A DNA stretch of 64,000 nucleotides from Rhizaria sp. SCN 62-66. Its lineage: Eukaryota. The DNA lies in assembly GCA_001724265.1 (NCBI GenBank), contig MEDY01000006.1, forward strand, positions 1 through 64,000, in the 5' to 3' direction. The notes below the pieces were generated by a model. The model made no database searches. It was not told where the DNA came from and saw nothing but the letters and a program-made list of their open reading frames with translations. The position numbers and the translations under genes are program-made. Positions 5,177 through 64,000 of the stretch are shown piece after piece (within the stretch, counting starts at the first letter, position 1; each line of letters begins with the position of its first letter).

Positions 5177-5207
<31 letters not shown>

Positions 5208-31200: not shown

Positions 31201-34200
31201 TCGAGCGTGCGTGACGGCAGCATTCGCCTTGGGCGCAGCGACAACGACAGCGACGGCGACGACGACAACGTCGGTGACAACAGCGGCGCAGGCGGTGGTT
31301 TTGACCCCGCCCGCTCTCAGCACAGTCACAGCGGCGGCCACAGTGCCACTAGCGGACGTCGCAGCGACGACGAAGAGAGTATGCTACCCGGCATGGTTCA
31401 AGAGCACTTTGACTCGCCCACACTTGGCCCCAACACACCATCACGCTCTCGCAACACGCGCTCAATCGGACACGCGCATCCTGGCGCTGCTACTGCAAGC
31501 GCGTTGTCATCACCCTCTGCTGCCGCTGTCGCTGCGGGCGCTGCTGTGGGACTGGCGCAGCTGCGTTTATCACCAGGACAGTCGTTCCGACTGCCGGGGA
31601 CGCCGAAATTTCCGCAAACGAACGCGGTGAATGCTTCAGCCAACGGTCGGTCTACGCTGCTTGGGCTTAGAGGCAAACCGCCGTTGTCACCGCTGCTGGC
31701 ACCGGGCGCACTGCCACGAACCCGCTCACAGCCGCAGCCACAGGGCTTGCGCTCTGCCCCCCAATCGCCACCGCAACAACATCATCAACTGCAGCAGCAG
31801 AGGACGCCTGCCTCGCCGTCGGCGTTGCTTCATCAACATCAAGAGCTTTTTTTGCCGCAGCTGGCGCCGACGCACGGCAGAAACAGCGCCCGAAGGACAT
31901 TGATGTTCTCCCCAACCACGCCGCCGCATCAACCCGTCACCGTGAGCTCGCCAGCCAGCAACGCTGCTTCAACGGAGCAGCAGCAACAACCCTTACCGCC
32001 ACCACCGTTGCCCATGATGCCATCATCGTCAGCGTCGTTTGTGCTGGCAACAAATCCCACAACTAGCGTATCGGCAAGTGCAGCTGCGAGCCCTGGTGCA
32101 AACCAGCAAACTGATCCTCAAGGCCATCAGGACCAAGAAGAGGAAGACGGCGTTCCCATCTTAGGGACCACTGCGAACAGCAACGCCGCGAGAGGCGCTA
32201 CTGTCTTGCAACCCGCATCAAGCACCAATCCGAACGGTGTCAGTGCCCGCGGTGCGAACGCGAACGCCGCCACTGTGACGAGTGGGTTGGACGCGCTGTT
32301 GCAGTCGAACGCCGCGATGAGCGCCTCATTGCTGCGCTCGCTTGCACGCCTCCCTGTGGTGCTGGCGTCCACTCTGCCGCCAGACTCGGCGCGCAGGCTT
32401 GGGCTTGAGCCACCACAAGATCACACATCACCGCAACCGCCGATGCTGTCGCTGCAACACCAGCAGCAGTACCAGTTTCACGTACCGCAGCAGGGGCAAC
32501 AGTCGCAGCACGTGACAGCAAGGCAGCAACACGGCCACAGCTCACGGCACCCGGCCGCTGCTGCGACGGCGCCTGTTGCGAACGCAGCGGCACCAGTTCC
32601 AGATCGAGCGTTAGTGCCTCATTATCGCGCCGATAGCAATAATTTCCAGTCTCTGTCACAGTTGCAGCCACCGCAATTCATTTTGCCATCTCAACAGCAA
32701 CAGCAGCAGCAGCAGCAACAGCAGGCTGCGCCATCACAGGTGGTGTCTCCTGACTTGTTGGGTTCGACCGGTGCGTTGACTGAGTGGCAGTGGCCGTGGC
32801 CGCGGCACGCGATGTCGCACGTCGTGGGCCGCTTCTCGCGTGTCATCTTGCCCAATATTCTGACACCGTTTGCGTTTGCTGCCACATAGAACGATGACGC
32901 CAATGCCCTTGACGGCCACAACATCGCTGCATCGAACGCACAAGGAACTGTCGGCGAGCGTCACGATGTAAGTGCCCACTTAGACGCTCAGCCCGACCCC
33001 CGCACGTGGTCTCAGCACCCCGGCGCGGTGGGCGACCCGGAGCTCCGCCGCCGGTCCCGCCTGCGGCAGCAGCACCCGCGCTCCGCGTTGGGCCCCGCGG
33101 CGACGCCCGTGACCATGGTCGCGTCGGTCGACGTTGCGCCCGTGTGGGCCCCGAGGTGGCTGCTGTGGGGAGGCGCGTGGGCGGAGATGCTCATGCCACC
33201 AGGGACACCGGTCGGGTCGGAGGGGCTTGGGCTTAGAAGCTGCAGCGGCACGAGCTCTGCGTCGTCGCCGTCGCCGTCGCGGACCAACTCGCGGTCACGC
33301 ACGCGCCGCAACCGCCGCCGCCGCCGTCGTGGTGACGATGATGCGAGCCGGAGGGCCGCCGCGAGCAAGCTTCTTAGAGTTGCGAACAACACCAATAGCG
33401 GCGCGACAATTTCTGGCGTCCACCAAGACCCGCTATCTGATGCTGACGCAGTCGACGACACGCACAGTCGCCGCAGGTCTCGGCGGCACCGCGCGCGCCG
33501 TGCCCGTGGTCGCGACGTGAGCGCTGCTGCTGGCGGCGGTGATGTTGCAGGCCGGCGTTACGCAGTCGGAGAGCGTGGACACGAGAGTGACCACGAGCCC
33601 TACGGGCGCCGCATGCGCAACTCTGCTGGCTACGATAACAACGGCGGTGCCGATTTCGATGATGATCATAGAGCCAGCGATAGCGGTACTGTCAGTGGCG
33701 ATGACAGCGATACAAGCGACGGCGATGACGGTGCGGACGGCGAGGCTCGGTTCAACTTGGGCTTCAGCAGCAGTGGTGTCATGGACAGCAACAACGCCAA
33801 CGCGTGGCCCGGCTCTGCTCGCCAAGTCCAGACGCCCGCTGCGAACCTGTTCAACAGGCACGCGCACCGGCGCGGCCACTCTATCAACGCGGCGCAGTCA
33901 GAGTCAGAACCAGATGCGCCTGCCAGTGCCGATGAGGGCAACGCTGTTGACGCACCCAGTGACTCTGACACTTCCGAGCAGCGGCGGCGCGTCGATGACA
34001 CGATATCTCACTTGCCGACGCTGCCGATATTGCCTCTGCACACAATCACAGCGGCGACCAGCAACACCAATGCGGGTGGCGTTGCCTCGATGACGCCCGC
34101 CCGAGGCAGCACTGTGGCTCCAGCTCCCCCGGGCGACAACGCCAATCTCAACAGCAGCAGCAACCACGCGGTTGGTGGCGGTGTTGGTGTTGCGTGGGGA

Positions 34201-35895
34201 ACCCCCCCTGCGCATGGCCACTCTCTTCAGACCGGCGCCAGTTCTGTTCACGGTCACTCTGAGGGCGAGGCCATTGACCCGCGGTCACCGCGTTCGGCGA
34301 TCGAAGTCCTTGATCACAGTTGTGTCCACGGCCACAATCATTCGCATCACGCGCATGGTCATCCATCTGCTCGTGCCCAATCTGTTGTTGATCCTTCGTT
34401 GCCTCCTGCTGCAGCCGCTGCAGCTGAGTTTGCGCTTGCAACGTCCCGCCGCCACCGCCCCGACACGCCCCGCTTCCCCGCTTCCGCCATTGCAGCGCAA
34501 CCCAACACTCTCGCGCCCAGTGACGGCACCGCAACCAATGGCAGCGCGGCACCCGCGCCCACTTATGGCGCATTGCAGGCGCAGCGGCCCCTCGCGGGCA
34601 CGCGCGCTGCCGTGGCTGCAGCCGAACGCGCCGAGGCCGCCGCCGCGCTAGAGCCCGCCGCGTACGCCGTGGTGACCGCGACGGAGGGCGGGGCGGACGC
34701 CATGCCGCGGCGGCTGCTGCTCATCAGGGCCGCGCCGCCGCCGGTGCTGGCGCCTGTTCCGGACGCGCCCGTCCGGTCCTACAGCCCCGCGTTTAACGAC
34801 CGAAGCTACGCCAACGCCGCGTCTGGTGACAGTCCGGCTGCTAACGCAATCAGTCCTCGCGATGGTGATGGTAGCGGCTCCGGTGCTGTCTCCGCACGTT
34901 CTTTTGCGTCTCCACGCTCTCCTGGTGACAACAATGATAACGCACCCAACAGTGGTCGTGGTGCTAATTCAGGGCCGATGTCTGCCCGTGCAGCTGTTCC
35001 CCACACACATGCGACTCACGCGAACCCCCGTGCTAACGTATATCCTCTTGCATCCGCGCCTGCGTACAGCGCCCCGTCGCAACCGCTGATGTCAACGACC
35101 GCCGCTGCCGCAGTTGCAGCCGCTGAGACGGCCCGTTTGCGGCAACAGCAGACAATCGCGACTGCGGCAACCGTGCTTGATTACACAGAGCGCGCGCTGT
35201 CACGTGCCCATGCGATTGAAAACCGCGCGGCGATGCTGCAAAGCCAAGCTGCCTCGTCGTCTCTGTCGCCCATCACAGATTCCGCTGTGCCAACTGGTGA
35301 TGTTGCTATGACATCGGCTGAAGCAGCGGGAGTTGCGTCACCGTCAGCGCCCGCAGCAGATGTCATTCTGAGTCCTTTCACTGCCGCTGCCGCCGCCGGC
35401 GCCGCTGCTGCCCGACTGGCCGCGCTTGTCCGCGAAGACGAGTGGGCGACTGCTGCTGCTGAGGCTGCCGCTGTGGCGGCGGAGACGGAGGCTGCGGAGG
35501 CCGAGGCCGAGGATGAGGCGACCGCGCTTGCTGCTGCGGCGGCGGAGGCGCAGGAGCTGGTGCGGGCACGCGCATATGAACCGTTCCCGCAGCCGTGGGA
35601 GTACGGCGACTACGGCGACGACGAAGAAGACGGCACCAACGCGAATGCGAATGATAATGGCGTCGCTGGTGATTTTGGAGGGAACGGGACCGGTGTTGGC
35701 CGAGCGAGGCGCAGTGGTGGGCATGCTGGGCGCAATGCTAACGACAGTAGTCAGGCTGCCGATATCAGTGCTGCTGCTCCGTCTAGGGCCTTGCCGGTGA
35801 CAGCGTCTGCTAGCCAAGGATTGCTGGGGACTGTACAGTCAACCGCGATCGTTGGCCAAGAAGAAGAGGAGGACGGCCGCAGTGGTAGGATTTAA
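25300..35895 (+). CDS. Very large (~3500 aa) predicted type I membrane protein: signal/hydrophobic N terminus, Ser/Thr/Ala-rich ectodomain, Cys-rich juxtamembrane module, one TM helix and a long disordered tail; in-frame TAG at 32887-32889
   Basis: ORFs 25207..32889 and 33028..35895 share a frame and the 46 intervening codons are open. Hydrophobic stretch LHSLLLLACLATLAVLVPTVTSA; Cys motif DCASILGG...DSCGLCSGG...DCAGVCFG; TM LVMTGILAFIALIALAVGAALP followed by basic residues. First ATG 25300; ends TAA. Confidence 0.7.
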
Positions 35896-37081: not shown

Positions 37082-37482
37082 CTATAGAAAGAATTATTCA
37101 AGGAAATAAACAAAGTCTACAAGTTTAGAACAATATCTGGCATCTATACCTCTGAATCGAGGATTAGCTGAGTTATACTTGTTTGAATACGACGGGCCAG
37201 CGAGAGTCCTGTCTCGCGCCTGCCACAGGACCGAATGGCGGGCTTTTTTTGAGTTTAAATAGAAAGCTATTTTGATCGTCAATGCGACTTTTTGTGGGTG
37301 ATATAGATTTCAACAGCAAGGATCGGCATCTTCATCTTTTTATGTATCTATGGTAATCGCTCACGCTGAGATATTTTATTTTCAATTCATCAACAGCACC
37401 ACAGTACACAAAGCCTTAGAGCAGCTTCTGTCCAGCTTCACTCGAGCACCACCTTCACTCTTTCACACACCCAGACACTGCG

Positions 37483-40147
37483 ATGTCGTCCCGCCGCCGC
37501 ACGGCCGACCATGAACCTGCGGTCGCAGGCTCCGACGCAGCACACCAGCGCTCCAAGACCGCTCGCATCGCCCATTCGCCCGCCAAACGCGGCTCCTCCA
37601 GCTCCGCCGGTGCGCGGACGGACCTGTCCGCGCTGCTGCCCCCGCCGTCCGCGGTCTCTGACGCGGACGACCCGCGCCTGCGCGCGCTGCGCGACCTGCG
37701 TCTGTGCATCTGCGACGGGCCCACGCAGTTCACCGTGTTCAAGTCGCGGCTCACGGTTAAGGGCGAGCTGGGGTACCGCATGATCCGCTGCACGCACGGC
37801 GTCCAGGAGGGCGACATGTACTTCGAGGTCCGCTTTAACCCCACCGCGGAGCAGCAGAGCAGCGCCGCCGCTGCGGCCGCCGCGGCCGCCGTGGCCACCG
37901 GCAGCTACAACACGAGCAGCGACGCCACCACTGCGTTCTACGGCAGCGCCGGCCTGGGGCCAGACGCCCTCTCGCCCTACAGCACGAGCTCAGGCTTCAA
38001 CACAACATCCGGCTCGAGCGCCAGCTCCAGCTCGAGCTCAAGCTCCAGCTCCAGCGGCGGCCGTGACCGTGACCGCGAGAAGTCCGAGAAAGAGAAAGAC
38101 CGCGACCGCGACCGGCACCAGTCCGAGCCCACGGCTGCGGGCGCGGCTCCCCCGCCCGCGTCGCCGTTCCTGTCGTCGCCGTCGCCAGCCAACATCCGCG
38201 TGGGCTGGTCGCGCGAGCGCGGCGACCTGGACGTCCCCGTCGGCTTTGACGAGCACTCGTACGGCTACGGCGGCTCGCTCGGCCGCCGCTTTCACCGCTC
38301 GCTCGGCCGCGACTACGCAATCGCTCCCGCGCCCGGGGACGTCATCGGCTGCCTCATCTCTCTGCCGGTCGTGTCGACGATGCATGGCGCCGGTGCCGCC
38401 GCCGCCGCAGCGGCCGCTGCTGCTACTGCTGCGGACGCCACGGCTGGCAACGGCAGTGTTGACGACAGCAGTAACATCAGCCGCAGTAGCAGCAGCAGCA
38501 GCAGCAGCAGCGGTCGCATCGCTGCCGCGGCATCTGACGTTGCGGGCGCGAGCGGTGCCGCCACTTCTTTGCCGACCCTCTCCCAGTCGCAGGCGCACGC
38601 GCAGGCGCAGTTGCTGGCGGCCGCAGCGTCCAACACCACGACTCCGGCCGCCCACAACAGCACCGCTGTCGAGGCCGACCGACTCATGTCGGACCTCAAA
38701 GACCAGTTCCGACGCCGCTTCACAACGCTCCACGGCTCGTCCATCACTTTCTTCCGCAACGGCAAGTCGCTCGGCCGCGCCTTCGACAACATCCCCGGTG
38801 GGCCGTACTTCCCCGCCGTCTCGCTGTACAACGGCGCTAGCGTCACGCTCAACTTCGGGCCAGACTTCGCATGCCCGCCTCCGGGCTGCGTGCCCAGGTA
38901 CGTGGTGCCTCATCATTCACACATGAATCGACGCAGAGTTAGAGTTTTTCTAAGATATTCAAAGTGAGATATTTTGATAAAAGCGCGTTCTATGTTATAT
39001 TTTAGTTTCATTGCTCACCGATTCGGTCTTTGCCGTCAAACGTGTTTCTTCTTTGTTTCCCTTTCGCCCCGCTCTCAGGGTGACCGTGGTTGAGGCCGAC
39101 GTCGACACCCACGCCGCCGAGACGCTGCTGCCGCCCGGACTCCTCGACGCCTACACGCGCGCTGTCGCGGCCGCCACCGAGGCCGCCGCAGTGTCGGCGG
39201 CGGCCACGGCGGCGGCGGCCTCGGCCTCGGCAGCCGCGGCGGCGGCGGCAGCGACCGCCGATGCCGCTGCCACGGCCACGGCTGCGGCCGGCGGCGGCTC
39301 TACGCCTGTTGCCGGCGGTGCTGGCGCTGCCGGTAGCAACAGCAGCAACAGCAACAGCACAAGCAGCAGCAACAGCAGCAAGAGCAAGAGCCAGAGCCAG
39401 AGTCACTCTCGGGGCGGCAGCAGCAGCAACAGCAACAGCAGTAGCAGCAGCAGCACTGGAGCCAGCGGGAGCTTGACTCCCCTTGCAGCGACGGCGACCG
39501 CGGCCGCCACCGCCGAGGCCTCCGCCGCCGCGGCCGCCGCCGCCGCCGCTGCCGCCGCGGCCGCCGCCGCGAACCCGCTCCCGCCGCTGCCCTTTCTGGG
39601 CGGCTTAACTTCTCTCCCCGCGGGCGCGCACGCGGCGCTGGTGGCGGCGGTGGGGCAGGGCGACGGCGCGGGCGTCTGGGCCTGGACCGACCACGCTGAC
39701 GCCACTGGGGGGCCCATCGATCTCACCGGCAACAACAGCGGCGGCAGGCGCGGTGGCGGCGGCGGCGGCGCGTCGAAAAAGTCCAAGAAGGGCGTGCACG
39801 GGCTGCAACGCAAGCAGCAGAAGAAGCGGCGGCCGCAGTCGACGGCCTCTGCGGCGCCCCTGCCCACTGGAGCTGCGGGCGCATCGGGTACGGGGGGGGA
39901 GGACGGCGACGGCGAGGGCGGCGACGACGACGGCGCGGCCGACCAGCAGGCCGACGGCAGCGGCGGCAGCGGCGGCAGCGGCGGCGGCGGCGGCAGCGGC
40001 GGCGGCGGCGGCAGCGGGGCGGGCGCGGCGAGGGCTCGCACGCGCGTGTGCGTGGCAGTGACGCGGATGCGGCAGGCTTTGTACCCCGCGCTGGTACCCA
40101 ACCCGAAGCTCGAGGAGGAGGCCGAGCTGTTGCAGATGATCAACTAA
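37483..40147 (+). CDS. ASH2: ASH2L/Bre2/TRAUCO-like SPRY-domain protein (COMPASS H3K4 methyltransferase subunit). Exons 37483-38897, 39079-40147
   Basis: SPRY segments GYRMIRCTHGVQEGDMYFEV, RVGWS...LDVPVGFDEHSYG, GDVIGCLI, SSITFFRNG, YFPAVSLY...VTLNFGPDF..PP match the Ash2 SPRY pattern. Intron GTACGT...TCAG. Ends TAA. Confidence 0.85.
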
Positions 40148-44145: not shown

Positions 44146-44397
44146 GCGCTGAGGGAGCTGGGCGGGCGCGCGCAGGAGGTGGGTGCGAGGAAGCAGGGGA
44201 AGAGTGCGGCGGCGTGTTCAAGTTTAGTTCGTGAGTTAAGTTCGATGCGAGAGTCCGTGTGATAGCACTATAATTTTATGACAATATCAGAAATGCCAAT
44301 TTAATTATAATTCTCTAATTATACTGTCTATTTTTATTGTTACACTCCAGTGCACAACTTTTCCCACTCCAGCCAGTCCACATCTTACCGCAGCCCC

Positions 44398-47300
44398 ATG
44401 TCCCATCCACTGCACAAGCCGCGGCCTGGGTACCTGCCTCACAAGAAGCACGGTAACCGCCCACCGCCGCCAACCGTGCTTGCCGCCGCCGGCGCCGCAC
44501 CCCTGAAGCCCCAGTACGGCGTTGATCCACGTCTGGAGCTCTTCGTGCCCCCGCAGCAGCGTCGCGCGCGGTCGCCCGCAGCGATAAAAGCATGGCGCTC
44601 TCTGCTATCCGCGGTTCCGGGGCTTGCGCACAGCGCGTTCGGGGAGCTCCCCGCGCGGATGCAGCCTGCTGCGGACGAGTTCACTGTGCTGGCAGCCGTT
44701 TTCGCAGTGTTCGACAGCTCTTACTTCGCTGATAACGAGTTTACTCCTTCTGTAACGGCTCCGAAGCAGAGTGATGTGAACGAGAGCAATCACGATGTTC
44801 CTCAGTCGTTCTCTCTGGTGACTATGAGCACGGGCACACGGTGTCTTGGCGCGAGCTTGCAGTCCCGCGCCGGGCTCGTTGTCGAGGACGGGCACGCGGA
44901 AGTCAAGTCGCGTCGCACGCTGTGCCGTCTGTTGATGCACGACCTGGCAGCGCTCTGTCTCCGCGTGCGCGCTACTATCAACGCGTTCAACAATAACAGC
45001 AACGAAAGCAGTACCGATGACGCTAGTGCTCGCGGCACAAGTCCCACCAAGGTTGTTATCGTGCGGTCAACGTTCTTTGAGTGGGCATTATACCCCATTC
45101 TGACAACTTCAGCCGCCGACACACCTGTCATTGATGCTGCTGCGCCCACAGACACTACTGCGACAGAGGCGGATATCCCAGCTGTGACGGCGGGTGTGAC
45201 CGCGCCCACGGTCACTCTGCGTCCTGCCCCGAGGCCTCGGCTGCGCCGCGGCGTGAGCTTCGCGCTGTACGTCTCACAGCCGCCCTGCGGCTCCGCTTCG
45301 TACGACCTGCCGCGGCCTAACTTTGACCCCGACTCCCAAGCATCGAACAGCAGCAACATCAACGCGAGCACAGGGGCTAACACAGACAACAGTAATGACA
45401 ACGCACAATCATCTGATGCAAGTGCGAGCGCGATCATAGACACCACCACCACCACCACCAGTGCTGCGTCGAGCTCACCGTCATCTGCTTGCCCACTGCC
45501 ACAGTTACTCGCTGACTCATCGGCGACGGACCCAGCCCGCCTGCAGCCGAAGCCAGGCCGCTCGGACCTGCCCGCCGCGCTGCGCACGCGCTGCCAGAGC
45601 TGCAGCGACAAGCTCGCCCGCCACTGCGCGCTCGGGCTCCAGGGCGCCTGGCTCGCGGCCGCTGCGGCGAGCCCGCTCACTGACCGCGAGCGCGAGCAAG
45701 AGCAAGAGCAAGCGATCGCATTGACTAGTGGCTGCGAGAAGGGACGTTTGTGGGATGTCAGGCGTGATTTGGTGCTGCCGTGGACGGCTGTTGTTGTGTC
45801 AGCTGGGGTTGACCCGGCGATCACGCTGCCCATAGTCACGGAGGTGGCGTCGACTGAGTCTGGTAACGCTGCCCCGGATTCTCAGAGCCAATCTGACACT
45901 GCAAGCACTGCTGCTTTAAACACGACTCTCACTGGTTATAAGCAGAGTGGGACATGGGATGACGCATCTGTGACTCAATACGGCACTATCAATGGGCTCA
46001 AGCTTGCTTTTTACGACCGTATCCGTGGTCACTTTGCGCCCGAGTCACTTACGAACAAGTCTCAGTCTCACGCAGAGGCAGACGAGCAGTCTCAGTCTGG
46101 CCTGCCTGCACCGCCGCTGCCACCACTGCTCGCAATCGCGCCTTCGGTTTGTTTCCCCAATTCGCGCTGGGCTCTGCTCAGGCAGGCGGCCGCGGAGGCG
46201 CGGGCAAGGCAGGTCGAGGCGCAGAAGGAGCAGCAGCAGCAGCAGCAGCAGTTTGAGCAAGGGCAGCTTCAACAACAAGGTCACCAACAGGAGAAGAACG
46301 ATCAAGACAATGTCTCTGACTCGCAATCCGCAGCACCAGCGAAGGCTAAGGACGCGTCTAGGAGTCATCACCAATCTAAGGGGGGTCCATCTAAGGGCCC
46401 CGGTGGTGCTCCGATGAGCAACCGCAGCGCGAAGCTCTTGTCTTTAGTGCCGCGCGCGCCGCGGTGCCCACCCATGGCGCTGGCGTGGTGCGCTGTGCCC
46501 ATCTTCGCGATGCCCTCAGGCCAGGGCTCAAACAACAGCAACAGCAACATCAATACTAGCTCTGACTCGAGTCCAGGCTCCAGCTCGGTTGATATCTCGG
46601 TCACGATTGCAGACAAGCTCGCTGTCACGGCTGTGACGGTGAGTTCTCTGAACTCCAGCCAGAGCACTGCTGCTGTCGGTTCAGTGACCGTGCTGCCGCG
46701 GCTGACCGTGAGCTGCGGCAACGACTGGTTCGAGACCGTGGTCGAGCGCTACGGGCTCCGCCAGGGCGCGCAGAAGCGGCCGGTCGAGGACGACACGAGC
46801 GAGGAAAAACGGGCGAACGCGCATCTTAATGCTGTTGATGCGAATGCTGCGACAGATACCACTTCTGCGGCGACAGATGATGACGTGATCACTCAGAAGT
46901 AGCCGCCTCAGCCAGGTGACGCTGAGAGCAGCAGCAACAAGGCTGAAGTCAGTGCTGATGTCGTCCTCCCAGCTTTTGCTGCTGCCACTCCAAATGTCGC
47001 TGCTGCAACTGAGTCTGCAACCGCTCCCGCTGCTGCTGATGTTGAGACTGCGTTCGTGTCGTCGTCATACCCGGTGCCTCGTGACGCCTTCAGTCCGCGT
47101 GCCTGCGTCCCCGCCCTGTCGTCCCTGTCGCTGATGTGCGCGTTTCGCGACATCACGCTGCTGTGGCCCACTGCCGCGAGCACCGTACCTATGCCTGCTA
47201 GTGGTGTGTCGACGGCAACGTGCGGGGCTGATGCGTACGCAGCGCGGTTGCGCACTGCCGCGGCGTTGCCTGCCGCTACTGCGAAGGCGTACCTGTACAG

Positions 47301-47625
47301 CGTCGCCAACGAGGCGCAGTCGCGGCTCAAGTTTACACACCCGACGTATGGCGAGAGGAAGGATGATGCCCTGAATATCAACGGCCTTGATGCAAGTACT
47401 ACGCATTCCAGCAGTGTTACTACGAGCGAGACTGCGACTGGGGGAAGTCAGGCTGTGACGACAGCCCAAGGTTTCGGTCTCCGCGGCTGGCCACCCAAGG
47501 AGCAAAAGTACACGCAGTTTGTCCTGCCCGAGCCGTACAAGATGCGGGACACACTGCAGCGGCCGTGGGCCCGTCTGGGTCTTAGCTCCTGGCTCTGGGA
47601 CGACGATGAGGCGAAACGGATCTGA
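44398..47625 (+). CDS. tRNA-specific adenosine deaminase ADAT1/Tad1-like (ADAR-type deaminase domain, no dsRBD seen), ~1075 aa, with an in-frame TAG at 46900-46902
   Basis: Motifs TGTRCL, DGHAEV, LYVSQPPCGSAS, KPGR, SCSDKLAR...LGLQGA, GLRQG. The same frame continues past the TAG into SSLSLMCAF and GWPPKEQKYTQF, which resemble the family's terminal elements. Ends TGA. Confidence 0.85.
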
Positions 47626-48119
47626 ACGAAAGCACATTTATAACCACACAGATAACTAGTATTTAATCGAGAAACCGAATTTAATGTGTCAATACATTCA
47701 ACATATACACAAGACAACCAATTTATTACATTATTTCATAGGATCTGGATCTGGAGTGATATGTTAAAATGACGAGTGCGAGATCAAACTGGCAGGACTT
47801 TTTGCGAACCGGATGAAAATTATCATTTTCGGTTCTAGGTCTCAGTCGTCTGCGGGATGCACTTCGCAGGTCTCATGTGCAATGCCGTCGGGTTGTATAT
47901 CACATTTGATCAATTGGGCGGAAACTTTATAATGTAAATATTCATTCTATTAAACGGCTGCTTTTATGTGACTTGTTGACATGCGATGACGACCTCGGCA
48001 GATCGTGCAGTTGGCGTGCAGTCCGGGACCGTCACCGTTTTCTTCTTTCTCTTAGCATTCTGTTGCTTACCGCTTCTTTTCCCTTCTGCCATTCTTTTGT
48101 CCACTTTAGCCTGGCCGCG

Positions 48120-48860
48120 ATGTTGAAGGCTCTTCGTCGTGCTGCTCCCCTCGCGAGCCGCATGAGCTCCTCCGCAGTCGCCTCCTTCTCCACCCTCTCC
48201 AAGCCCCTCGCCGCTTCCACCTCTGCCGCGCTCCCCGCGTTCTCGGCCGCTGTTTCGCAGCTCTCCCTCGCCGCGCCCCTTCGCGTTGCTCCCCTTGCCG
48301 CCTTCTCCACCGAGGCCGCCGCTGCTCCCACGACCGGCGACGCTGCACCCGAGATCGCCCCCGTGGTGATCGAGAACGCCATCGCCACCTCGACGGGCTT
48401 CGTCTCCCACGCGCTCCGCCCCCAGGCCGAGCTGATGTACCGCAACCTCCCCATCGGCGAGGCCAAGCTGGACCTTATCTGCCGCCTCATCCGCGGCCTC
48501 TCGGTCCGCGAGGCTATCGCGCAGCTCCGCCTCTCTGAGCGCAAGCACACGTACTGGTTCCGTCGCGCCCTCGAGAACCTGACGCGCCAAGCCGTGCACA
48601 ACTTCAACATGGCACCCGAGCGCCTCGTTGTTCAGGAGGTCTACTCGACCCGCGCCAACCAGTACATCCGCGCCGACTTCAAGGGTCGCTCGCGCCTGGG
48701 CTTCCGCTACCGCTACCACTCGCACCTCTTCATCAAGGTCGGCGAGCAGAAGTACCACCCCAACGAGATCCGCATCGGCCGCCTCGGCCCCACCATCACG
48801 CACATCAACAAGGTCAACGCCACCATCGACGCGTGGAAGGCCCGCAAGAGCGCCGACTGA
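48120..48860 (+). CDS. MRPL22: Mitochondrial ribosomal protein uL22m
   Basis: Presequence-like MLKALRRAAPLASRMSS; L22 core KLDLICRLIRGLSVREAIAQLRLSERK...LVVQEVY...KGRSR...HSHLFIKV. Ends TGA. Confidence 0.9.
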   Translation: MLKALRRAAPLASRMSSSAVASFSTLSKPLAASTSAALPAFSAAVSQLSLAAPLRVAPLAAFSTEAAAAPTTGDAAPEIAPVVIENAIATSTGFVSHALRPQAELMYRNLPIGEAKLDLICRLIRGLSVREAIAQLRLSERKHTYWFRRALENLTRQAVHNFNMAPERLVVQEVYSTRANQYIRADFKGRSRLGFRYRYHSHLFIKVGEQKYHPNEIRIGRLGPTITHINKVNATIDAWKARKSAD

Positions 48861-50938: not shown

Positions 50939-53900
50939 ATGGTCCGTCATCAGTCGTAACTAGCCTCAATTTGACGGCATGGCAATGTTGCATTGTGGGC
51001 CTGAGGCATCATTATCACGCACTATATAATATCTGCTGCCATCTTACCTTAACTTACTCCCTTGCTATGTCTCGCTCACTTTCTCGTTGCCTTTCGCTCC
51101 GTGTGTAGTTTGCGCATCTGACTAAGAAGATCCAGATGACCTCTGGCAAGCGCCTCACGGCCGTGGGGTGGGACCACGCGGAGAACTGGCTGGCGATTGG
51201 CGGCGAGGGCGGGCTGCTCAAGATCTTTGAGCTCGACGCCAATGGGTCCCCTGTGCACATCCAGACGCCTGACGGCCACCAGACGGACGTGGTGCTCATC
51301 GCGTGGAACGGCGCGCAGCAGAAGCTCGCTACGGCCGACGCGTCGGGCATGATCATCCTCTGGGGCTACTACGACGGCGTGTGGACCGAGGACATGGTGA
51401 ACAACCGCAAGAAGTCGTTCGTGTGTGACCTGCGGTGGTCACCCGACGCGCAGCGCATCGCCATCGCCTACGCCGACGGTGCCGTGATCATGGGCACCGC
51501 GACGGGGCAGCGCATCTGGGGCAAGGACCTCAACGTCCAGCTCAAGCACTGCGCCTGGGCGCCCAACTCGCAGTCTGTGTTGTTCGCGACTGATAAGGGC
51601 GAGGTGCAGATGTACGACGCGTCGGGCAACTTCCTGCTCCGCGTGGACAACTACACACTGCCCGGCAAAGGCGCGCAGTCCCCCGGCGTGGCCGGGCTGG
51701 CCTGGTTCACGCCCACGGTCCCCACTGCGCTGTCCCCCGTGTTTGACTCGCCGCTCTCGGCCGCGATCCCGCGCCTGGCCGTCGCCTACGACTCGGGGCG
51801 CGTGCAGCTGCTGCGGACCGAAGTGGACGACAACCCAGCACTGCTGGACACCGGGCTGACCGTGCGCAAGCTCGAGTGGAACCCGGCCGGGTCGGTGCTC
51901 GCGGTCGCGGGCTCCCAGCAGGGCACGGCCGCCGACGGCACGTACCGGGAGACGCACCAGATCCAGTTCTACTCGCCGACGGGCCAGCACCTGCGCACGC
52001 TCAAGATGACCGACGGCGACTCGCTGTCCTCCTTCGCCTGGGAGGCTTCCGGTCTGCGCGTTGCGATCGGCGTCGAGGCACTGCTCTACTTCGCCGCGGT
52101 GCGCCCGCGCTACGACTGGTGCTACCTCACGCCGCCCGTCGCCTTCAACACCGGCGCCGCTGTGGCCGGCGGCGCGGCCGCGGGCTCGGCCACGGCGGCC
52201 GCGGTCCCTACCGACCCTGTGGCCGCGGCGCTCGCCTCGGCGGGCTCCGCGGTCGGCGCGGGCACGCTGGTGTACGCGTTCCATCGCGCGGACCGGCCCG
52301 AGCAGTGCGTGATGTTCTGGGACGTGGTCAAGAACGAGCGCCAGACCAAGTATGTGCGCAATCTCGTCAAGGTCAAGGGCGGCGGCGAGTTCGCGCTCTT
52401 TGCCACGCAGCTCGAGTCGGCGCAAAAGTACGTCATTTGTGAGAGTTGTCCGCTGTTTTTATTGATCGCAACTCGAACCTGTGCATTGCTCGACGAGGTT
52501 TTTTTGCTCATCGAGATTCATTGACGTGTTTTTTTTGTTGTTGTTTTTTGCTTTTGCTTGTGTTTCCCAACAGCCGCTACTGCCTGATCGTGTGCAACGC
52601 GCTGGGTCTGGCCGTTGACAACCGGTTCATTGACCTGGAGCCCAAGCACGTTGCGCTTAACAGTTCGCACGCCATCGCCGCCAGCAATGATATCATCTAC
52701 ATCTGGGAGTACCGGTACGTTCATATCGATGTCTGTTTGCAGTATTTGACTTTCTCCGATTTTTGACGCGCGTTGTTCATCTTGTCACATCCTTACATCT
52801 TTCTTTCCTTTTCTTGTTCTTTGTTGTTGCCCGCTCAGCCCGAGCACTCTGGCAGTCGCCGTCACCGGCTCCCTCGGCGGGTCCACCGCCGCCGCGGGCG
52901 GTGCCAACGCGACCACGGTCAAGGGCGCAGAGAAGCTCTTCCACGTTGACCAGGGCCCCTCGCAGGCCGTCAATGTCGTCGCCGCTATCGCACAGGCGCA
53001 GGCGCAGGTACGTAAAACAATAACTTCGACAACTTGTGTCAAACCCTAGAATCAACACGATTTGTTGTATGAAACAACATCTCTCGACACTATCTCACGA
53101 AAACACCATATATCCTTTTGTCATGTATGTTCCCACGCTTGTGTTGTTCAGGCCCAGGCCCAGGCGCAGGCGCGCGGCATGAATCCCACCGCAGCCGCCG
53201 CCGCCGCTGCCGGCGCCAACGGCCCCATAGTTGCCGCATCGCTGCAAATGCTCGGCAACGTCCCTGCCGTCACGCAGAACCCCGTGGTCGCGGTGGCCGC
53301 CGCGCCCAACTGCTTCGCCGTCGCGCGCGCCTCGGGCTCCATCACCAAGTACAGGTGCGTGTCGCTAAATCATTTAATTAACATATCTATTTCACATTTT
53401 CACCCTCAGAACCAGATTTGTATTTTTGTTTTTTCTATTGTTAACAAAAAGAGCTTCATTCCGTCTTCTAACTTCTGATTTGCCACCACTCTTTTCGTTT
53501 CGTTTCTCCCTTTGTGTCCGCTCTTCGTACCGCGCAGCCTGCCGTCGTGCGTGGAGGAGGGCCGGTACGTCATCCCCGCGCGGCCCGAGTCGATCGCCTT
53601 CAACTGCGACGGCACGCGCCTCTCGGTCACCGACACCAACGGCAACCTCACCCTCGTCGACACGTCTTTGGCGCACAACCAGCACGTCCGCGCCTCGGCC
53701 CTCTCGTCCTCGCTTAGCAACGCCGCTAATAGTAACGCCCCGGGGGGCCCGCCGCCCGTGTTCGAGCGCTCCTCGGTGTGGGACGTCGTCTGGGCGGCCG
53801 ACGACCCGGCCTTGTTTGCCACACTGGAGCGCGGGCGCATGTACGTGTACCGCGGCGCTGGCGTCGGCGGCAACCCCTCACCGTCGACCGCGCTCGCCGC

Positions 53901-56301
53901 CGCGGCGGGGGCCGGGGGCGCCGCGGGGGCCGCCGGTGCCGCCGTCGGCGCCGCCGCGAGCGCGAGCCCGATGCACGCGATTCCGCGCCCCGAAGAACCC
54001 GTGGGGAACCCGGGGTACATCTGCGCCTTCTCAGACCTCACCGTGCGCACGGCGTTCCTGGACCAGGTGTTCCAGTCGCCCGAGAACCCGGCGGACGAGC
54101 TGGTGACCACGTTCGACTCCAAGGCGCTGCGCGACACGGTGCAGCTGCTGTCCTCGGTCCCGCTCTCGGACGTCTGCGCCTTCATCGAGGAGACGCCGCA
54201 CCCGCGGCTGTGGCGCGCGGCCGCCGACGCGGCGCTGCAGGCGCTCGACTTCGTCATTGCCGAGCGCGCCTTCGTGCAGTGCCGCGACTACGTAGGCGTG
54301 CAGTTCGTCAAACGCCTCAAGCTGCTCACCGACGAGAAGCGCCAGAACGCGGAGGTCGCGACTTATTTCGGCCGCTTTGACGCCGCCGAGGAGCTGTATT
54401 TGGCTATTGGCCGCGCTGACCTGGCGCGCGAGTTGCGCGCCAAGCTCGGCGACTGGTTTAAGGTCGTTCAGGTACTGACACACTTTGCTACATATCTCAA
54501 AAATACTGTATATGTTCATGATATAACACGTACGAATTTCTTTAGACGGAGTTGATGTATTTTCATTTGAATGTTAAATGTTTTCCTTGTGCTCACACCT
54601 TGTATCTTTTCATGTTGTTTTTGCTAATTCCATTCAGCTCCTGTCCAAGGCCACGGACGCGACGCCCGCGCAGCACGCCGACGCGTGGGCCCACGTTGGC
54701 GCCCTTTATGCCGCGCGTCACAACTGGTCCAAGGCTGTGGCTGCTTTCGTCCGCGCTGGCAAGCCGCTCGATGCTGCGAACGCCGCGATCGAGCTGGAGG
54801 AGTTCGGCGGGGTGGCTGATCTTGTGGTCAAGGCCATGCCGGAGGGCGTCGCGGGGCTCGAGGAGATCGCGCGCCGGTACGCTACAAACACTTTCGTGAT
54901 ATAATGCAATAATACCCATCATGCTATCTTGATTTTAATACGTTTAGCATTTTTCATAACTCCACTACTTGCATTTATCTCACACACCTGTTTGCCACGT
55001 TTGTTTTCTGACTGCATAGACTCGCGTCCGCCGGTCTTGCAGAGGACGCCGCCAAGGTCTACGTACATGCGTGTCAACCGCAGCAGGCGGTTGACACGTG
55101 CGTGCGCCTCAATCACTGGTCTCTGGCCGTTGCCCTGGCGGAGCGCCACCGCGTGGCCAACATCGCGACCGTGCTCGCACAGTACGCCGGCCACCTGCAG
55201 CGGTCAGGCAAGCGCTACCAGGCCGCGGACCTGTACCGCAAGGCCGGGCGCCACGCCGACGCCGCACGCGTGCTGCTGGCGCTGGCGGCCGAGGCGGCGC
55301 GGAACCCCGCCGCGACGCCCGTGGACGTCAAGAAGCTCTACGTGCTGGCGGGGCTCGAGGGCGAGGCCTGGCGCCGCGCCTCCGTGGCTAACGCGCGCTC
55401 CAAGGCCGCCGGCGGCGCGGGCAACGGCGGCGACCCCGAGTCCGCCGCTGCTGCCGGCGGCGCCACTGCGGCGTCCGCCGTGGCCGCGAGCACCGCGCTG
55501 ACGCTGGAAGGCTTGCTCGCGGCAGACGACGCCGTGGCGACGGCGGCGGGCAGCGGCGGCGGCGGCGGGCTGGACCGGCCCTGGCGCGGCGCCGAGGCCT
55601 TCCACTTCTGGCTGCTCGCGCACCGGCAGCTGTACCGCGGCCAGTACGAGGCCGCCGCGCGCACCGCGACCCGGCTCGGCGAGTACGACGATCTAGTGCC
55701 CGCTCACCGGGCCGAGGCGCTGAGCGCGCTGGCGTCGTACGTCGCGGGGCACTATAACAAGTGCTCGCGCGCGTTCGTCAAGCTCGAGAGCATGGAGTCG
55801 ATCTCGCCCGAGCAGGCTGATGAGTACCGCCGCGTCGCGCTGTCCATCTTCCTGCAGCACCCGCCGCGCGACCCCGTGGAGGCGGCCGGCTCCGAGATGG
55901 CGTGCCCGCGGTGCCGCGCGGCCGTCAAGGACGGCGACGCCGCCTGCGAGGACTGCGGCAAGAGCCTCCCTGTCTGCATCGCCACCGGTGGCAGTCTGGT
56001 ACGTAACAGTAACTTATAACGAAGAGGATGGCCGTAATGTGTTACTTTGATATATTGCATAAGATCTTCATTAACTTGGTACGAATTGTGCTTTTGACGC
56101 TTTATACTATTCAATACCTCATTATTAAGCCTTGTTTTATTGTTTCTGTTTTGTTTTGTTCGTTTTGTTTAGCTCGGCATGTCAGCGCTGACGTGCCCCC
56201 ACTGCTTCCACCAGGGCGCAGAGCACCTCATGAAGAGCTTCCAGAGCTGCCCGCTGTGCCACCAGTCGCTCGAAGGCGGCGTAGTCTCTACTCCCGAGTA
56301 A
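50939..56301 (+). CDS. WDR35: Intraflagellar transport protein WDR35/IFT121. Exons 50939-50941 (ATG only, tentative), 51109-52427, 52574-52714, 52839-53007, 53152-53354, 53538-54471, 54638-54876, 55020-55998, 56173-56301
   Basis: FAHLTKKI...GGEGGLLK, WTEDMVNNRKKSFV, GQRIWGKDL, PHPRLWR, AERAFVQCRDYVGVQFVKRL, KLGDWFKVVQL, WRGAEAFHFWLLAHRQLY, CSRAFVKLE, C-terminal CIATG...CPHC...CPLCH. All junctions GT-AG and frame-consistent. Ends TAA. Confidence 0.95.
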
Positions 56302-60092: not shown

Positions 60093-63000
60093 TTACTGCC
60101 AAGCCCCCTTGACAACATGGCCAGGTTTAGAGGCATCGGGGCCTCCTCGAGTGGCATTCTGCATGGAAGCCCTTTGTCCTGTTTCGGACACCGAAGCAGC
60201 CGTTGCGTCAGTCGGAGAAAAGAACAGGGGCGCAACGGTAGCAGTGGTGCGCGAGGGCATAGCATCCGGGTTAGACTCGGGCAAAGAGGACAGCGTCAGT
60301 GACTGATGTTGCGACTGCGGCGTCCTCACCAAAGACTTCGACGGACTAACAGGGCCATTAGGGGCATATCCCCCAACGACGCTATACGTGCCTGAGGGCT
60401 TTCGCGAGTGTGGCCGCGACTCAGGTTCAGCATCCGCGAGGTAAACACGCAAGTTACTAACGTTACCGTTGCTCGCCATATCGAGCGCAGGACTGTGTGC
60501 TGCAACGAGTTGCATTGCCCCGTTCAAGATGGGACTACCGGTGGGATTCGCATTGTTGAAAGTGAGACTCGGAGCGTGGAAGCCAGGACTTGTACTCATC
60601 ACATGCGGCGGCGGCATTGCACCGCCAGCAGTATGACCAGAAACTAGGTCAACAACGGGGCTAGTCGAGGGTCCATAGTCAGCCGCAGTGTGGCTGTACA
60701 CACCGCCAGGTCCATACATAAACGCGGCGAGCTCTTTCGCACTCATGGCCATCGCGCCAAGACTGGAACTACGGCTGTGGCCAACGCGGTGCTTGTTAGA
60801 CGGGCTGATCGTTGACTGGCTCACATTCGCATGAGGAAACATGCTGCCGCACAGAACGCTGCTGCGCGGCGAGGGACCGGCGCCAATAACCGGGTTGATG
60901 TTGAGGCTGCTGCGACCGCTTACATTCCCCGCGCCGGGACCATGCAGCTGCTGCATCTGCTGCTGTGCATAAACGTGCGCCTGGGCCTGAGCCTGAGCCA
61001 GTGCGAGTGCCTGCGCCTGAGTTTGTAGTTGCGCATGCAGCATTGATGGTGACGGCTGCGCCTGCGGCTGTTGCACGTGCGAGTGCATGAAGTATCCGCC
61101 GATCTCGCTATGCTGCGCGCTGCCTGGACGGGCAACGCTGCCGGGGCGTTGGTGGTCGAAATTAGGTGACCTGCCACCAGGACCAGGGGAGCCTCTCGGG
61201 GTGGCGCGGCTACCAGCAAGCAACATGGAGGGACGCGGACTCTGCCTAATGGAAACATACGGCGGAGACTGCTGCAAGTCTGTCTGGACCTGTTGTTGAA
61301 GCTGCCGTCGCTCGTTCAATTGTTGTTGGTGCGAGGGAGAGATACGAGACACAGATGCAATAACCGGAACAGCAATAGCCGGAGCATTTACATCAACGAT
61401 GAGTGATGTTTTATCCGCAATAACAACTGTGCTGTCAAAAGCACGAAATGAGGCGTCGCGCGACTTGTTATGATGATAGTTAGACATGTGAGTCTCGCGT
61501 GAAGTTGCTACAGAAAGTTGCGGTACAGCAATAGAAGCGTCTTCATCGTCAGAGTCGTTCCCATTGTGCGAGGAGCGCGGACCACGTGCAGTCGACGCAC
61601 CAGTGGGACGGTGACTCGTGTTGCTATTAATGCTAGCGCGGGCGTTGTTGAGCTTCATGGGTGTATCATGCGTGGTTGCAGGCGTCGCCGTCATGGTCGA
61701 CGGAGCCTGCAGCGAGCTGCTCACTGCACTGCAACCCTCTGCAGGGACACTATGGCCGCGATCAGCAACATCCGTATTAGTTCCCGGGCTCAACGTCGCG
61801 GCTTGTGGAACTGTGCGAGTTTGACTATGCACAGGACTGACGCGCCTGTCATCGTGCACGCGGCTTACATCGCCCGGGTTCACTGTCACATCAAGAATAC
61901 TCTCGCCAGCGGCAACAGCATTCCCGAAAAGACCTGCACTGACGCGAGTGTTCTCCTTGCCCGCGTTGGCTGCTGCGCGGGCTTGTTCCATGGCCTGGAG
62001 GCTGACGCCATGGACATGAGTTCTCTGGTAGTACTGGTTATCAGGAAGCATGGGGTTGTTCGCATTGCTAGGTGTGGTGTTATTACTGCTGCCGTTAAGC
62101 ATAGCATGCCGCGCTACACCGCCGTGCCAGCCGCCGCCAGTGATATCCAATAGGAACTCCGTCGTGTTGGTACGGACCGAGACGTTGTTGCTCTGCCCCT
62201 GTGGTGGCGCAAAAGGTGAGTCACCGACGGACCGGTTTGCAGGACTGTGGCCATTTTTAGGGGTGGCTGAGAGTGTGGTCGATCCGCGGACCCCGGGACT
62301 CGTCCCGGGCACGGTGACAATAAGAGGCGCCGGCGCACGAACAACGCCAGCACCTGCAGAGCCAACAGGAGCCTTTGCGCTTGATTCATGAATGATTGGG
62401 AGCTTTGGACTCCCGCCAACACCGGGACGAGCGTTAGCAGCAGCACTGTTGTTACCGTCGCCGGACGAATGGCGCTGCTGACTCAAAGTCATAGCAGGCG
62501 GAGTTGTGGGGGAAAAGGGATTGACCTGACACTTGATCACAGCACGGTGATAATGTGTCGCTTTTCCGCATACACCCGTGCCCTGCTTGAGAAGACTGAC
62601 TTTCGGCATCGGCGGCGAAGGCGTGAACATCCCGTCCTCTTGATCGTCGAAGTCATCCCCATTATTAATCACTGCACTCGAAGCAGGAAGTGGAACGACA
62701 TCAGGAACCGAAGTTAACTTGTGCTCCTCATCATCGTCGATATCATCCTCACAATCGACGTTGACATCATCGTCATCATCAGTGACGCAGTCACTGTCAC
62801 ATTCATGCTCTTCGTCGCATTGCTCACCCTCATGTTCACCTTCGATAACAGCCCCAAGCCCAGCAGCAGCAACAACAACGTCGTTAGTTAAGTCAATTGT
62901 GCCATCAACCCCAGGCTGAGTACCTAGCGCACCTGCACTTGCGGAGTCACTGTCGGCCATAGGTGCAGACGCTGCTGTAGGAGGAGCAGTATGTGAACCG

Positions 63001-64000
63001 TGATGCCCGCTAACCGCGCTACCTCCAACGGCAGCGCCGTGACTGGTACTGTCGTTGATCTGCGGCGACGTGTGATTGCTCGCGATGCTCTCAAGTGTCA
63101 GTGCTTGACGCAGCTTCGTCTTAGCGCGCAACCGCGCGCGCTGCATCTTGGCCTCCTCTTTGGCACCGCTAGGTCGGCGGAAACAGCAGTAGAACCGTCT
63201 CACCGGCGCACAAGCGCCTTCACCCTCCGCGCTGGCTACAGTCGTCGTCGTTGTCGTCGTCGTTGTCGACAGGGGCGACTGGGCCTCAAGTGGTGACGGC
63301 ACATAAGGAGTGAACGTAATTTCTTCCTCGCCCTCGTTGATAACAGTAGTTCCAATGTTGCGTGAGGCTGTGTTGGCAAGTGGTTTGCGTTTGTACGCGT
63401 AGGCTTCGCCCCATAGCTCTTTCTTGTTGTCCTCTTCAACAACAGTCACCGCAACGCTCCCAAACTGCCTCTGCTGCACATATTGCAGCGGCGTGCGTTG
63501 CACAGAGCGGTTCGCAGCAGAGGTGGATGAAGCGACCGTGGCGCTGATCGACGGCGTATACACTGCAACCGTGAGCTCAGCATCCGCAGGCGTGATGGTT
63601 GAGTGTGGAGGAGGCACCAGCAACGCGCTCTGCCGCCTCGATGCGGACCCACTCGGAACGCCCACGCGGCCGCGCGCAGCGACTGCACCGGCTGGCGGTG
63701 GGAAAATAAGATGCGCGTGCGATTGAGAGCGCAAATAAGACGTCGACTGCAAGAGCTCCCGGGCGGCAATGAATGACACTGAGCCGGGTAGCGTTGGCTG
63801 ATTACTACTTGCGGCAGACACTGCCTCTGAACTGGTTTGTTGTTGTGCTCGGTTAACACTGTTTTGAGCGATACCAGGAACTTGAAGAGTAAGAGAAGCA
63901 ATACTACCACCACGTTCACGGCCGATATCATGACCACTATTGCCGTATGTCAGCAAGTTGTCATCGACAGTGCGTGTCGCGTCGCCGGAGATAGAGTAAG
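60093..64000 (-). CDS. 3' part of a large low-complexity (S/P/Q/A-rich) protein of unknown function; 5' end lies outside the window
   Basis: 1287-codon ORF whose frame stays open to the window edge (YSISGDATRTVDDNL...). No recognisable domain. Ends TAA, followed by AT-rich sequence. Confidence 0.75.
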   Translation of the reverse strand, partial: YSISGDATRTVDDNLLTYGNSGHDIGRERGGSIASLTLQVPGIAQNSVNRAQQQTSSEAVSAASSNQPTLPGSVSFIAARELLQSTSYLRSQSHAHLIFPPPAGAVAARGRVGVPSGSASRRQSALLVPPPHSTITPADAELTVAVYTPSISATVASSTSAANRSVQRTPLQYVQQRQFGSVAVTVVEEDNKKELWGEAYAYKRKPLANTASRNIGTTVINEGEEEITFTPYVPSPLEAQSPLSTTTTTTTTTVASAEGEGACAPVRRFYCCFRRPSGAKEEAKMQRARLRAKTKLRQALTLESIASNHTSPQINDSTSHGAAVGGSAVSGHHGSHTAPPTAASAPMADSDSASAGALGTQPGVDGTIDLTNDVVVAAAGLGAVIEGEHEGEQCDEEHECDSDCVTDDDDDVNVDCEDDIDDDEEHKLTSVPDVVPLPASSAVINNGDDFDDQEDGMFTPSPPMPKVSLLKQGTGVCGKATHYHRAVIKCQVNPFSPTTPPAMTLSQQRHSSGDGNNSAAANARPGVGGSPKLPIIHESSAKAPVGSAGAGVVRAPAPLIVTVPGTSPGVRGSTTLSATPKNGHSPANRSVGDSPFAPPQGQSNNVSVRTNTTEFLLDITGGGWHGGVARHAMLNGSSNNTTPSNANNPMLPDNQYYQRTHVHGVSLQAMEQARAAANAGKENTRVSAGLFGNAVAAGESILDVTVNPGDVSRVHDDRRVSPVHSQTRTVPQAATLSPGTNTDVADRGHSVPAEGCSAVSSSLQAPSTMTATPATTHDTPMKLNNARASINSNTSHRPTGASTARGPRSSHNGNDSDDEDASIAVPQLSVATSRETHMSNYHHNKSRDASFRAFDSTVVIADKTSLIVDVNAPAIAVPVIASVSRISPSHQQQLNERRQLQQQVQTDLQQSPPYVSIRQSPRPSMLLAGSRATPRGSPGPGGRSPNFDHQRPGSVARPGSAQHSEIGGYFMHSHVQQPQAQPSPSMLHAQLQTQAQALALAQAQAQAHVYAQQQMQQLHGPGAGNVSGRSSLNINPVIGAGPSPRSSVLCGSMFPHANVSQSTISPSNKHRVGHSRSSSLGAMAMSAKELAAFMYGPGGVYSHTAADYGPSTSPVVDLVSGHTAGGAMPPPHVMSTSPGFHAPSLTFNNANPTGSPILNGAMQLVAAHSPALDMASNGNVSNLRVYLADAEPESRPHSRKPSGTYSVVGGYAPNGPVSPSKSLVRTPQSQHQSLTLSSLPESNPDAMPSRTTATVAPLFFSPTDATAASVSETGQRASMQNATRGGPDASKPGHVVKGAWQ

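Follow-up and report, generated by a model that had tools for sequence, protein, structure and literature searches.

We describe here an adenosine deaminase gene of the ADAT1 type that continues, in a single frame, through a TAG codon, and propose that in the organism carrying this gene UAG is probably decoded as a sense codon. The gene lies in the first 64,000 nucleotides of contig MEDY01000006.1 (GenBank assembly GCA_001724265.1, Rhizaria sp. SCN 62-66); this whole 64-kb stretch is referred to below as the window. In the proposed scheme, the zinc-binding catalytic half of the enzyme would be encoded 5' of the TAG, and the C-terminal elements that would enclose inositol hexakisphosphate (IP6) would be encoded 3' of it, in the same frame; ribosomes would place an amino acid at UAG, with termination at UAA and UGA only. 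The sense reading is put forward because the in-frame stops in the window are exclusively UAG, while genes end exclusively with UAA or UGA, the signature used for a rhizarian and for Iotanema as described in PMC5304391. As to the amino acid inserted at UAG, Gln is a guess made by analogy with precedent and from the CAG-rich contexts of the codon.

The deaminase gene and the elements on either side of its TAG

The stop-to-stop frame at positions 44311–46902 ends with the TAG, and the same frame then stays open over 46903–47625, for 240 codons, up to a TGA. With X at the position of the TAG, the read-through translation is 1104 residues long over the whole frame, and 1075 residues long when counted from the ATG at 44398. 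A preliminary description of the locus, made from the letters and a list of open reading frames (ORFs), had given the context of the TAG as ...ACT CAG AAG TAG CCG CCT CAG CCA..., followed by 240 open codons with no ATG in the first 75 or so; it had also placed the motif GLRQG upstream of the TAG, and SSLSLMCAF and GWPPKEQKYTQF downstream of it. All of its factual statements are correct: the letters of the TAG are at 46900–46902, the first Met is residue 78 after it, GLRQG (46753–46767) is 5' of the TAG, and the other two segments are 3' of it. The coordinates of the features discussed are collected in Table 1.

The Pfam A_deamin family matches the translation with an E-value of 4e-23; the score, 82.9 bits, exceeds the curated cutoff of 27. 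No other Pfam family, including the double-stranded RNA (dsRNA)-binding domain, was found in the 1104-residue translation at E-values up to 1. Since A_deamin is the sole Pfam family found, the protein appears to have no dsRNA-binding domain, as is the case for ADAT1 and not for ADAR. In an alignment of 72 sequences (the gene product and 71 homologues), residues H166, E168, P296, C297, G298, S401, C402, D404, and K405 occupy invariant columns, and residues G786 and G790 of GLRQG are nearly invariant. Enzymes of the ADAT1 family make inosine at position 37 of tRNA-Ala. By these sequence features, the gene is assigned as coding for an ADAT1-type tRNA adenosine deaminase, with predicted activity at A37. 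Among 1.84 billion representatives, three fragments of the gene itself excepted, no sequence is closer than 35% identity. Long low-complexity insertions bring the protein to about double the usual length, and 462 of its 1075 residues have a predicted local distance difference test (pLDDT) score below 50.

In ADAR2, IP6 is contacted by residues K629, Y658, K662, Y668, K672, W687, and K690 (PMC11120146, Table 1). According to PMC5558901, activity depends on IP6, the C-terminal region covers this cofactor, and yeast ADAT1 binds it too. We prepared a family profile from 23 full-length homologues, which could be aligned with the ADAR2 deaminase domain along its full length (E-value 1.6e-72); the mapping of the family's conserved elements to ADAR2 residues is given in Table 1. 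The preliminary description had expected the family's C-terminal motifs past G..QG, and a W..K.....F motif was indeed found after the TAG, in the same frame. When a 14-column matrix of the W..K block, derived from the 23 homologues, was applied, LRGWPPKEQKYTQF scored 18.4 bits, a value reached in none of 2000 composition-matched shuffles of the post-TAG piece. LRGWPPKEQKYTQF was also the best match in all six frames of the window, the runner-up scoring 8.9 bits and the best match upstream of the TAG 0.9 bits. The S.LCK block picked PALSSLSLMCAFRDI, the helix to which the preliminary description had pointed, with 5.6 bits (133 of 2000 shuffles were as high). A 17-column Y...K block was not significant on the post-TAG piece, 1801 of 2000 shuffles being as high. 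Taken as a collinear set, the three C-terminal blocks sum to 21.7 bits, which was matched in 2 of 5000 shuffles. In the MAFFT alignment, the nearly invariant Y, K, and W of the family fall on Y984, K988, and W1031, all of them past codon 835. Equivalents of ADAR2 K629, Y668, and K672 were not identified in the deaminase, while those of Y658 and K662 are plausible.

The read-through protein was modelled with AlphaFold2 from a 72-row alignment, and the model has a predicted template-modelling (pTM) score of 0.69. Past the TAG, pLDDT values are 87 for residues 911–920, 80–82 for residues 951–970, 86 for residues 981–990, and 89 for residues 1031–1040. Prediction of the full-length structure had been proposed in the preliminary description as a check, and the resulting model superposes on ADAR2 (VIA-align to 5hp3_A, Z 32.0, root-mean-square deviation 3.3 Å, 350/394 residues). 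The superposed span runs from residue 46 to residue 1044 of the model and from residue 307 to residue 700 of the 5hp3_A chain, and thus extends across residue 835, the position of the TAG. Foldseek on the model gave an E-value of 1e-7. The predicted fold is like that of the ADAR2 deaminase domain over the whole domain. The earlier claim that UAG must be translated for the enzyme to be complete is supported by the W..K block, by the collinear blocks, and by the superposition of the AlphaFold2 model on ADAR2. A prediction of a complex between the pre-TAG core and the post-TAG piece, made without the family alignment or controls, scored 0.00, i.e., gave “no answer”, and carries no weight either way.

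Table 1. Positions of the deaminase gene, its motifs, and the three in-frame TAGs in the window, with ADAR2 equivalents of family elements.
Feature	Position	Strand	Remarks
ADAT1-type (A_deamin) gene	44398–47625	+	One frame, 1075 codons including the TAG, from the first ATG (putative start) to TGA
HAE motif, residues 166–168	44893–44901	+	Putative zinc ligand His and catalytic Glu; aligned to ADAR2 HAE
PCG motif, residues 296–298	45283–45291	+	Putative second zinc ligand; aligned to ADAR2
SCSDK motif, residues 401–405	45598–45612	+	Putative third zinc ligand; scores 30 bits against the C-half profile of the family
GLRQG, residues 786–790	46753–46767	+	Family G..G.KQG; last conserved element before the TAG; block match 6.1 bits
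In-frame TAG, codon 835	46900–46902	+	Low-complexity linker; pLDDT ~32 around residue 835
PALSSLSLMCAFRDI, helix aligned to family S.LCK (ADAR2 K629 region)	47110–47154	+	Lys not evident; model helix 909–922, pLDDT 74–87
YGERK (Y984, K988)	47347–47361	+	Placed by MAFFT on the nearly invariant Y...K (ADAR2 Y658/K662); pLDDT 86
LRGWPPKEQKYTQF, terminal W..K.....F (W1031, K1034 = ADAR2 W687/K690)	47479–47520	+	Block score; pLDDT 89
Terminal TGA	47623–47625	+	Next in-frame stop 5 codons on; AT-rich DNA 3', GC 0.31 over 150 nt
Second in-frame TAG	32887–32889	+	ORF of 3565 codons (25198–35895), no Pfam family; 1001 open codons after the TAG
Third in-frame TAG	9539–9537	-	Coiled-coil, low-complexity, Q/N/S-rich gene, 12089 down to 8817; 239 open codons after the TAG
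Family G..G.KQG			ADAR2 ~614–618, profile mapping
Family S.LCK			ADAR2 K629, profile mapping
Family sY...K			ADAR2 Y658/K662, profile mapping
Family W..KP.....F			ADAR2 W687/K690, profile mapping

Independent copies of the TAG site and the question of splicing

A DNA contig from a separate study (X3) matches positions 46798–48500 with no differences, and two metagenome contigs (L001 and L002) are identical through the TAG site. No alternative letter at 46900–46902 was seen in any run examined. An assembly error as the cause of the TAG is excluded. A further contig (X8), from a library that is labelled RNA-Seq and is probably DNA, matches 46758–47011 with no differences; it is unspliced, and its TAG is unchanged. 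The X4 contigs end at 46863 and resume at 47246.

Three fragments of the deaminase gene, 617, 162, and 144 residues long, are present in protein collections, and the 162-residue fragment stops exactly at the TAG. The 617-residue fragment (P0002) diverges from the window at a CAG repeat (~46230), and its last six residues are unrelated. These six residues resemble what we take to be a translated sequencing adapter, and the public contig behind P0002 probably has an artefact at its end.

The TAG could be bypassed at the level of gene structure, either through a small non-canonical intron or through an internal start that would yield the C-terminal piece as a polypeptide of its own, which would then assemble with the N-terminal piece. 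The genome does have introns, and excisions of 30, 33, and 36 nt of the form GTAGCC...AG would formally preserve the frame. Four introns of the WDR35 gene (see below) are 123–182 nt long, have a GC content of 0.38–0.41, begin with GTACGT or GTGCGT, and end with a pyrimidine tract followed by YAG; further introns were found in the Mpp10 and SPRY genes. In contrast to these verified introns, the GC content around the deaminase TAG is 0.52–0.60, and, as the preliminary description had held, no consensus intron signals are present there, or at least none like those of the verified introns. Its view that the 30-nt GTAGCC...GAGAG excision is unlike introns in this DNA is likewise borne out by the length and GC content of the latter. 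The only consensus-like, frame-preserving GT...CAG pairs spanning the TAG enclose DNA with a GC content of 0.61–0.63, and all of them begin 5' of GLRQG, which they would delete; two of these pairs end at 47319 and would also remove ~420 nt of post-TAG coding sequence. The second in-frame TAG of the window, that of the 3565-codon ORF, has no adjoining GT. Splicing out of the TAG is thus unlikely. As for a separate polypeptide, a second gene would lack both an AT-rich spacer and an early ATG, and the first Met (residue 78) falls within the conserved helix. The unspliced X8 contig at 46758–47011 argues in the same direction, though weakly, as it may be DNA. Overall, we consider a bypass through gene structure, in either form, to be very improbable.

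In-frame TAGs, gene ends, and the probable decoding of UAG as sense

The DNA downstream of all three in-frame TAGs differs from that downstream of TAA and TGA. The next in-frame stop is 4–41 codons past the 15 TAA/TGA stops examined, and 240, 1001, and 239 codons past the TAGs of the deaminase gene, the 3565-codon ORF, and the coiled-coil gene, respectively. The GC content of the following 150 nt is 0.31–0.51 past the 15 TAA/TGA stops, and 0.55–0.65 past the three TAGs. Given the density of off-frame stops in the coding DNA of the window (229 per 13102 codons), the probabilities of such open lengths arising by chance are ~0.014 (240 codons), 2e-8 (1001 codons), and 0.015 (239 codons). Past the TAG, the first Met is reached only at residue 78 in the deaminase, residue 76 in the 3565-codon ORF, and residue 192 in the coiled-coil gene. 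Codon-usage scores of the post-TAG parts in the original frame are +0.28, +0.20, and +1.00 (in the same order), while the scores of the other frames are negative (-0.67 and -0.57 in the deaminase). Past its TAG, the coiled-coil gene has 191 codons without Met, with a GC content at third codon positions (GC3) of 0.83–0.85; judged by codon usage, this stretch is the clearest evidence of continued translation. The second TAG, like the first, is present in X3, in a contig that matches 32731–33839 with no differences.

These data bear on the possibility that the protein simply stops at the TAG, the gene being an allele inactivated or truncated not long ago, and the 240 codons a decaying relic, with the same holding for the other two genes. 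Gln is encoded more often by CAG (421 occurrences) than by CAA (115), and one transition converts CAG to TAG. In addition, the codon-usage signal is lowest near the TAG (0.09–0.19 in 150-nt windows starting at 46828–46978). However, because the C-terminal elements are encoded 3' of the TAG, a product ending there would be devoid of the entire IP6-enclosing part. Moreover, there would be three nonsense alleles among 16 genes, all of them TAG, with no TAA, TGA, or frameshift over 1001, 240, and 239 codons, while the coding signature past the TAG is undiminished. Identical TAGs are found in assemblies of several studies. We therefore regard truncation of the protein at the TAG as quite improbable.

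According to corrected gene models, the 16 gene ends in the window comprise 10 TAA and 6 TGA. Third positions in most genes are 80–89% GC, yet none of the 16 ends is TAG. The corrected ends are those of Mpp10 (TGA, after an intron), OLA1 (TGA), and WDR35 (TAA). The TAG at 21972, considered as the end of Mpp10, was rejected, since it is off-frame after the intron. The TGA at 38965, considered as the end of the SPRY-domain gene, lies within an intron and was left out of the tally, leaving the 16 ends. The AT-rich stretch at 38900–39078 that holds this TGA ends with a pyrimidine tract and a CAG at 39078; the ORFs at 37420–38967 and 38981–40147 are, by their sequence, probably one gene with an intron. 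Five other in-frame TAGs (12095, 19152, 37417, 51106, and 57198) were rejected as coding and counted as part of 5' untranslated regions, because each precedes either the first Met or the region of homology; the one at 37417 was judged by position only.

If the standard code applies, UAG terminates elsewhere and the three UAGs would have to be passed site by site, either by a near-cognate tRNA, in read-through that is leaky or programmed, or after A-to-I editing, which would turn UAG into UIG, to be read as UGG. The great rarity of in-frame TAGs (3 of 13,855 codons) is consistent with passage of this kind, as is the location of all three in tolerant, disordered regions, and A-to-I stop-loss editing that restores reading frames is reported for Fusarium and Neurospora in PMC5558901. 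Yet the contexts 3' of the three TAGs are different (CCG CCT, AAC GAT, and AGC GAT), RNA structure downstream of them is ordinary (z of -0.8, -0.6, and -1.3), and no element was found in an Rfam search. A programmed read-through frequency of 3 in 16 genes would be extraordinary, and the absence of TAG from all 16 gene ends also argues against termination at UAG elsewhere. The X8 contig (labelled RNA-Seq, though it may be DNA) has an unedited TAG. Site-wise passage of UAG under the standard code thus seems unlikely to us.

Several observations weigh against the decoding of UAG as a sense codon. The 16 gene ends are a small sample, and the absence of TAG among them has a p of ~0.03 if TAG is at 20% of ends. 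Three in-frame TAGs among the 13,855 codons counted (~0.2 per 1000) are far sparser than UAGs in the rhizarian exLh. The three UAGs are in low-complexity, non-conserved stretches, with no alignable column that would name the encoded residue, and no tRNA gene was found in the 64-kb window. Apart from the W..K block, the post-TAG part finds little support from sequence profiles. An A_deamin search, proposed earlier as a way to see whether the domain spans the TAG, matched the N-terminal part (the best stretch covers positions 67–164 of the 329 in the profile), but the 240 post-TAG residues matched no Pfam family at E-values up to 1. Sequence searches of the PDB matched nothing in the post-TAG piece either (phmmer E-values of 0.38 or worse), and a word-indexed search with residues 740–1104 returned no homologues at E-values up to 0.001. 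A hidden Markov model of the C-terminal half of the 23 homologues gave 3.2 bits on the post-TAG piece, ranking 5th of 201 when placed among 200 shuffles, with the W..K motif at the expected position, and hhalign aligned only this motif of the family alignment with the post-TAG piece (P 0.039, probability 1.3%). The AlphaFold2 model is not fully independent evidence, because it was built on the same MAFFT alignment. As to RNA across position 46900, to which the preliminary description had also pointed, the X8 contig is unspliced and keeps the TAG, with the reservation made above that it is probably DNA, while none of the contigs listed for the poly(A) RNA run X6 spans the TAG, where the depth bins of that run are ~0–0.7.

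We nevertheless consider sense decoding of UAG the probable explanation. It is possible, though rather doubtful, that the reassignment in this GC-rich, non-ciliate protist lineage is at an early or ambiguous stage, with UAG dropped as a terminator and translated, but rare and present only in tolerant disordered stretches. If true, this would capture in nature the intermediate that codon-reassignment theories postulate. Because standard-code gene callers split genes at TAG, the proteome of the organism would be mis-annotated wherever a TAG occurs.

Neighbouring genes and comparison with known systems

The organism is an uncultured protist of wastewater and bioreactor metagenomes, where it recurs in runs of several studies. 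Its exons are GC-rich, while its spacers and introns are AT-rich. The WDR35/IFT121 gene (51136–56300, + strand) has at least five introns, and its product is at most 38% identical to any named protein. Since WDR35 is an intraflagellar-transport gene, the organism is flagellated or ciliated at some stage. The CDPK encoded at 1674–5558 has orthologue-like metagenomic relatives (P0209–P0211) at 50–61% identity; the next-best named matches are coccidian CDPKs (30–35%), which gives a lead to an alveolate affinity, but not a placement. P0209–P0211 lie on metagenome contigs of 9, 147, and 47 kb, so that relatives of the organism with long contigs exist. No relatives turned up when genome contigs were scanned with P0211 and alignment A2, and a metagenome scan for relatives yielded nothing but the two identical copies of the TAG locus, L001 and L002. 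An ORF of 1301 codons (60093–63998, - strand) that runs off the window matches no Pfam family, and its GC3 is 0.55, compared to 0.79–0.89 in its neighbours.

The deaminase resembles ADAT1/Tad1p (PF02137, A_deamin) in its HAE, PCG, SCSDK, G..G.KQG, and W..K.....F elements, in that no dsRNA-binding domain was found, and in its predicted ADAR2-like fold. It differs in being about twice as long, in having no evident equivalent of ADAR2 K629, in its in-frame TAG, and in the low identity (35%) of its closest relative.

To our knowledge, UAG-only nuclear reassignments occur in very few eukaryote lineages. Among the literature matches listed, which are not exhaustive, cases of UAG as a sense codon come only from ciliates, trypanosomatids, Amoebophrya, a rhizarian, and Iotanema. 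If true, the reading proposed here would be a UAG-only sense reassignment in a further, seemingly unrelated lineage without a described case, although its class of mechanism is already known, and would provide an additional independent, possibly young, case of how a stop codon changes its meaning.

A stop codon present at the DNA level within a gene for a full-length protein is a feature shared with the A-to-I editing of ascomycetes (Fusarium and Neurospora), as described in PMC5558901. That editing, however, is fungal and meiosis-specific, whereas the organism studied here has the intraflagellar-transport gene WDR35 and is not an ascomycete, and none of the contigs showed an edited base. PMC11687900 reports UAG reassignments for phyllopharyngean ciliates. 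The codes described in PMC5304391 are those of the rhizarian exLh, where UAG stands for Leu, and of Iotanema spirale, where it stands for Gln, UAA and UGA being the sole stops. For exLh, the same source gives 384 in-frame UAGs in 71 genes, with 56 genes ending in UAA and 15 in UGA. Compared to exLh as reported there, UAG in the window is much rarer (3 in 13,855 codons versus 384 in 71 genes), no conserved position names the residue, and the genome is GC-rich. What the window has in common with the exLh and Iotanema codes, as they are presented in that source, is that the in-frame stops are UAG only and that genes end in UAA and UGA only (10 and 6 here; 56 and 15 in exLh).

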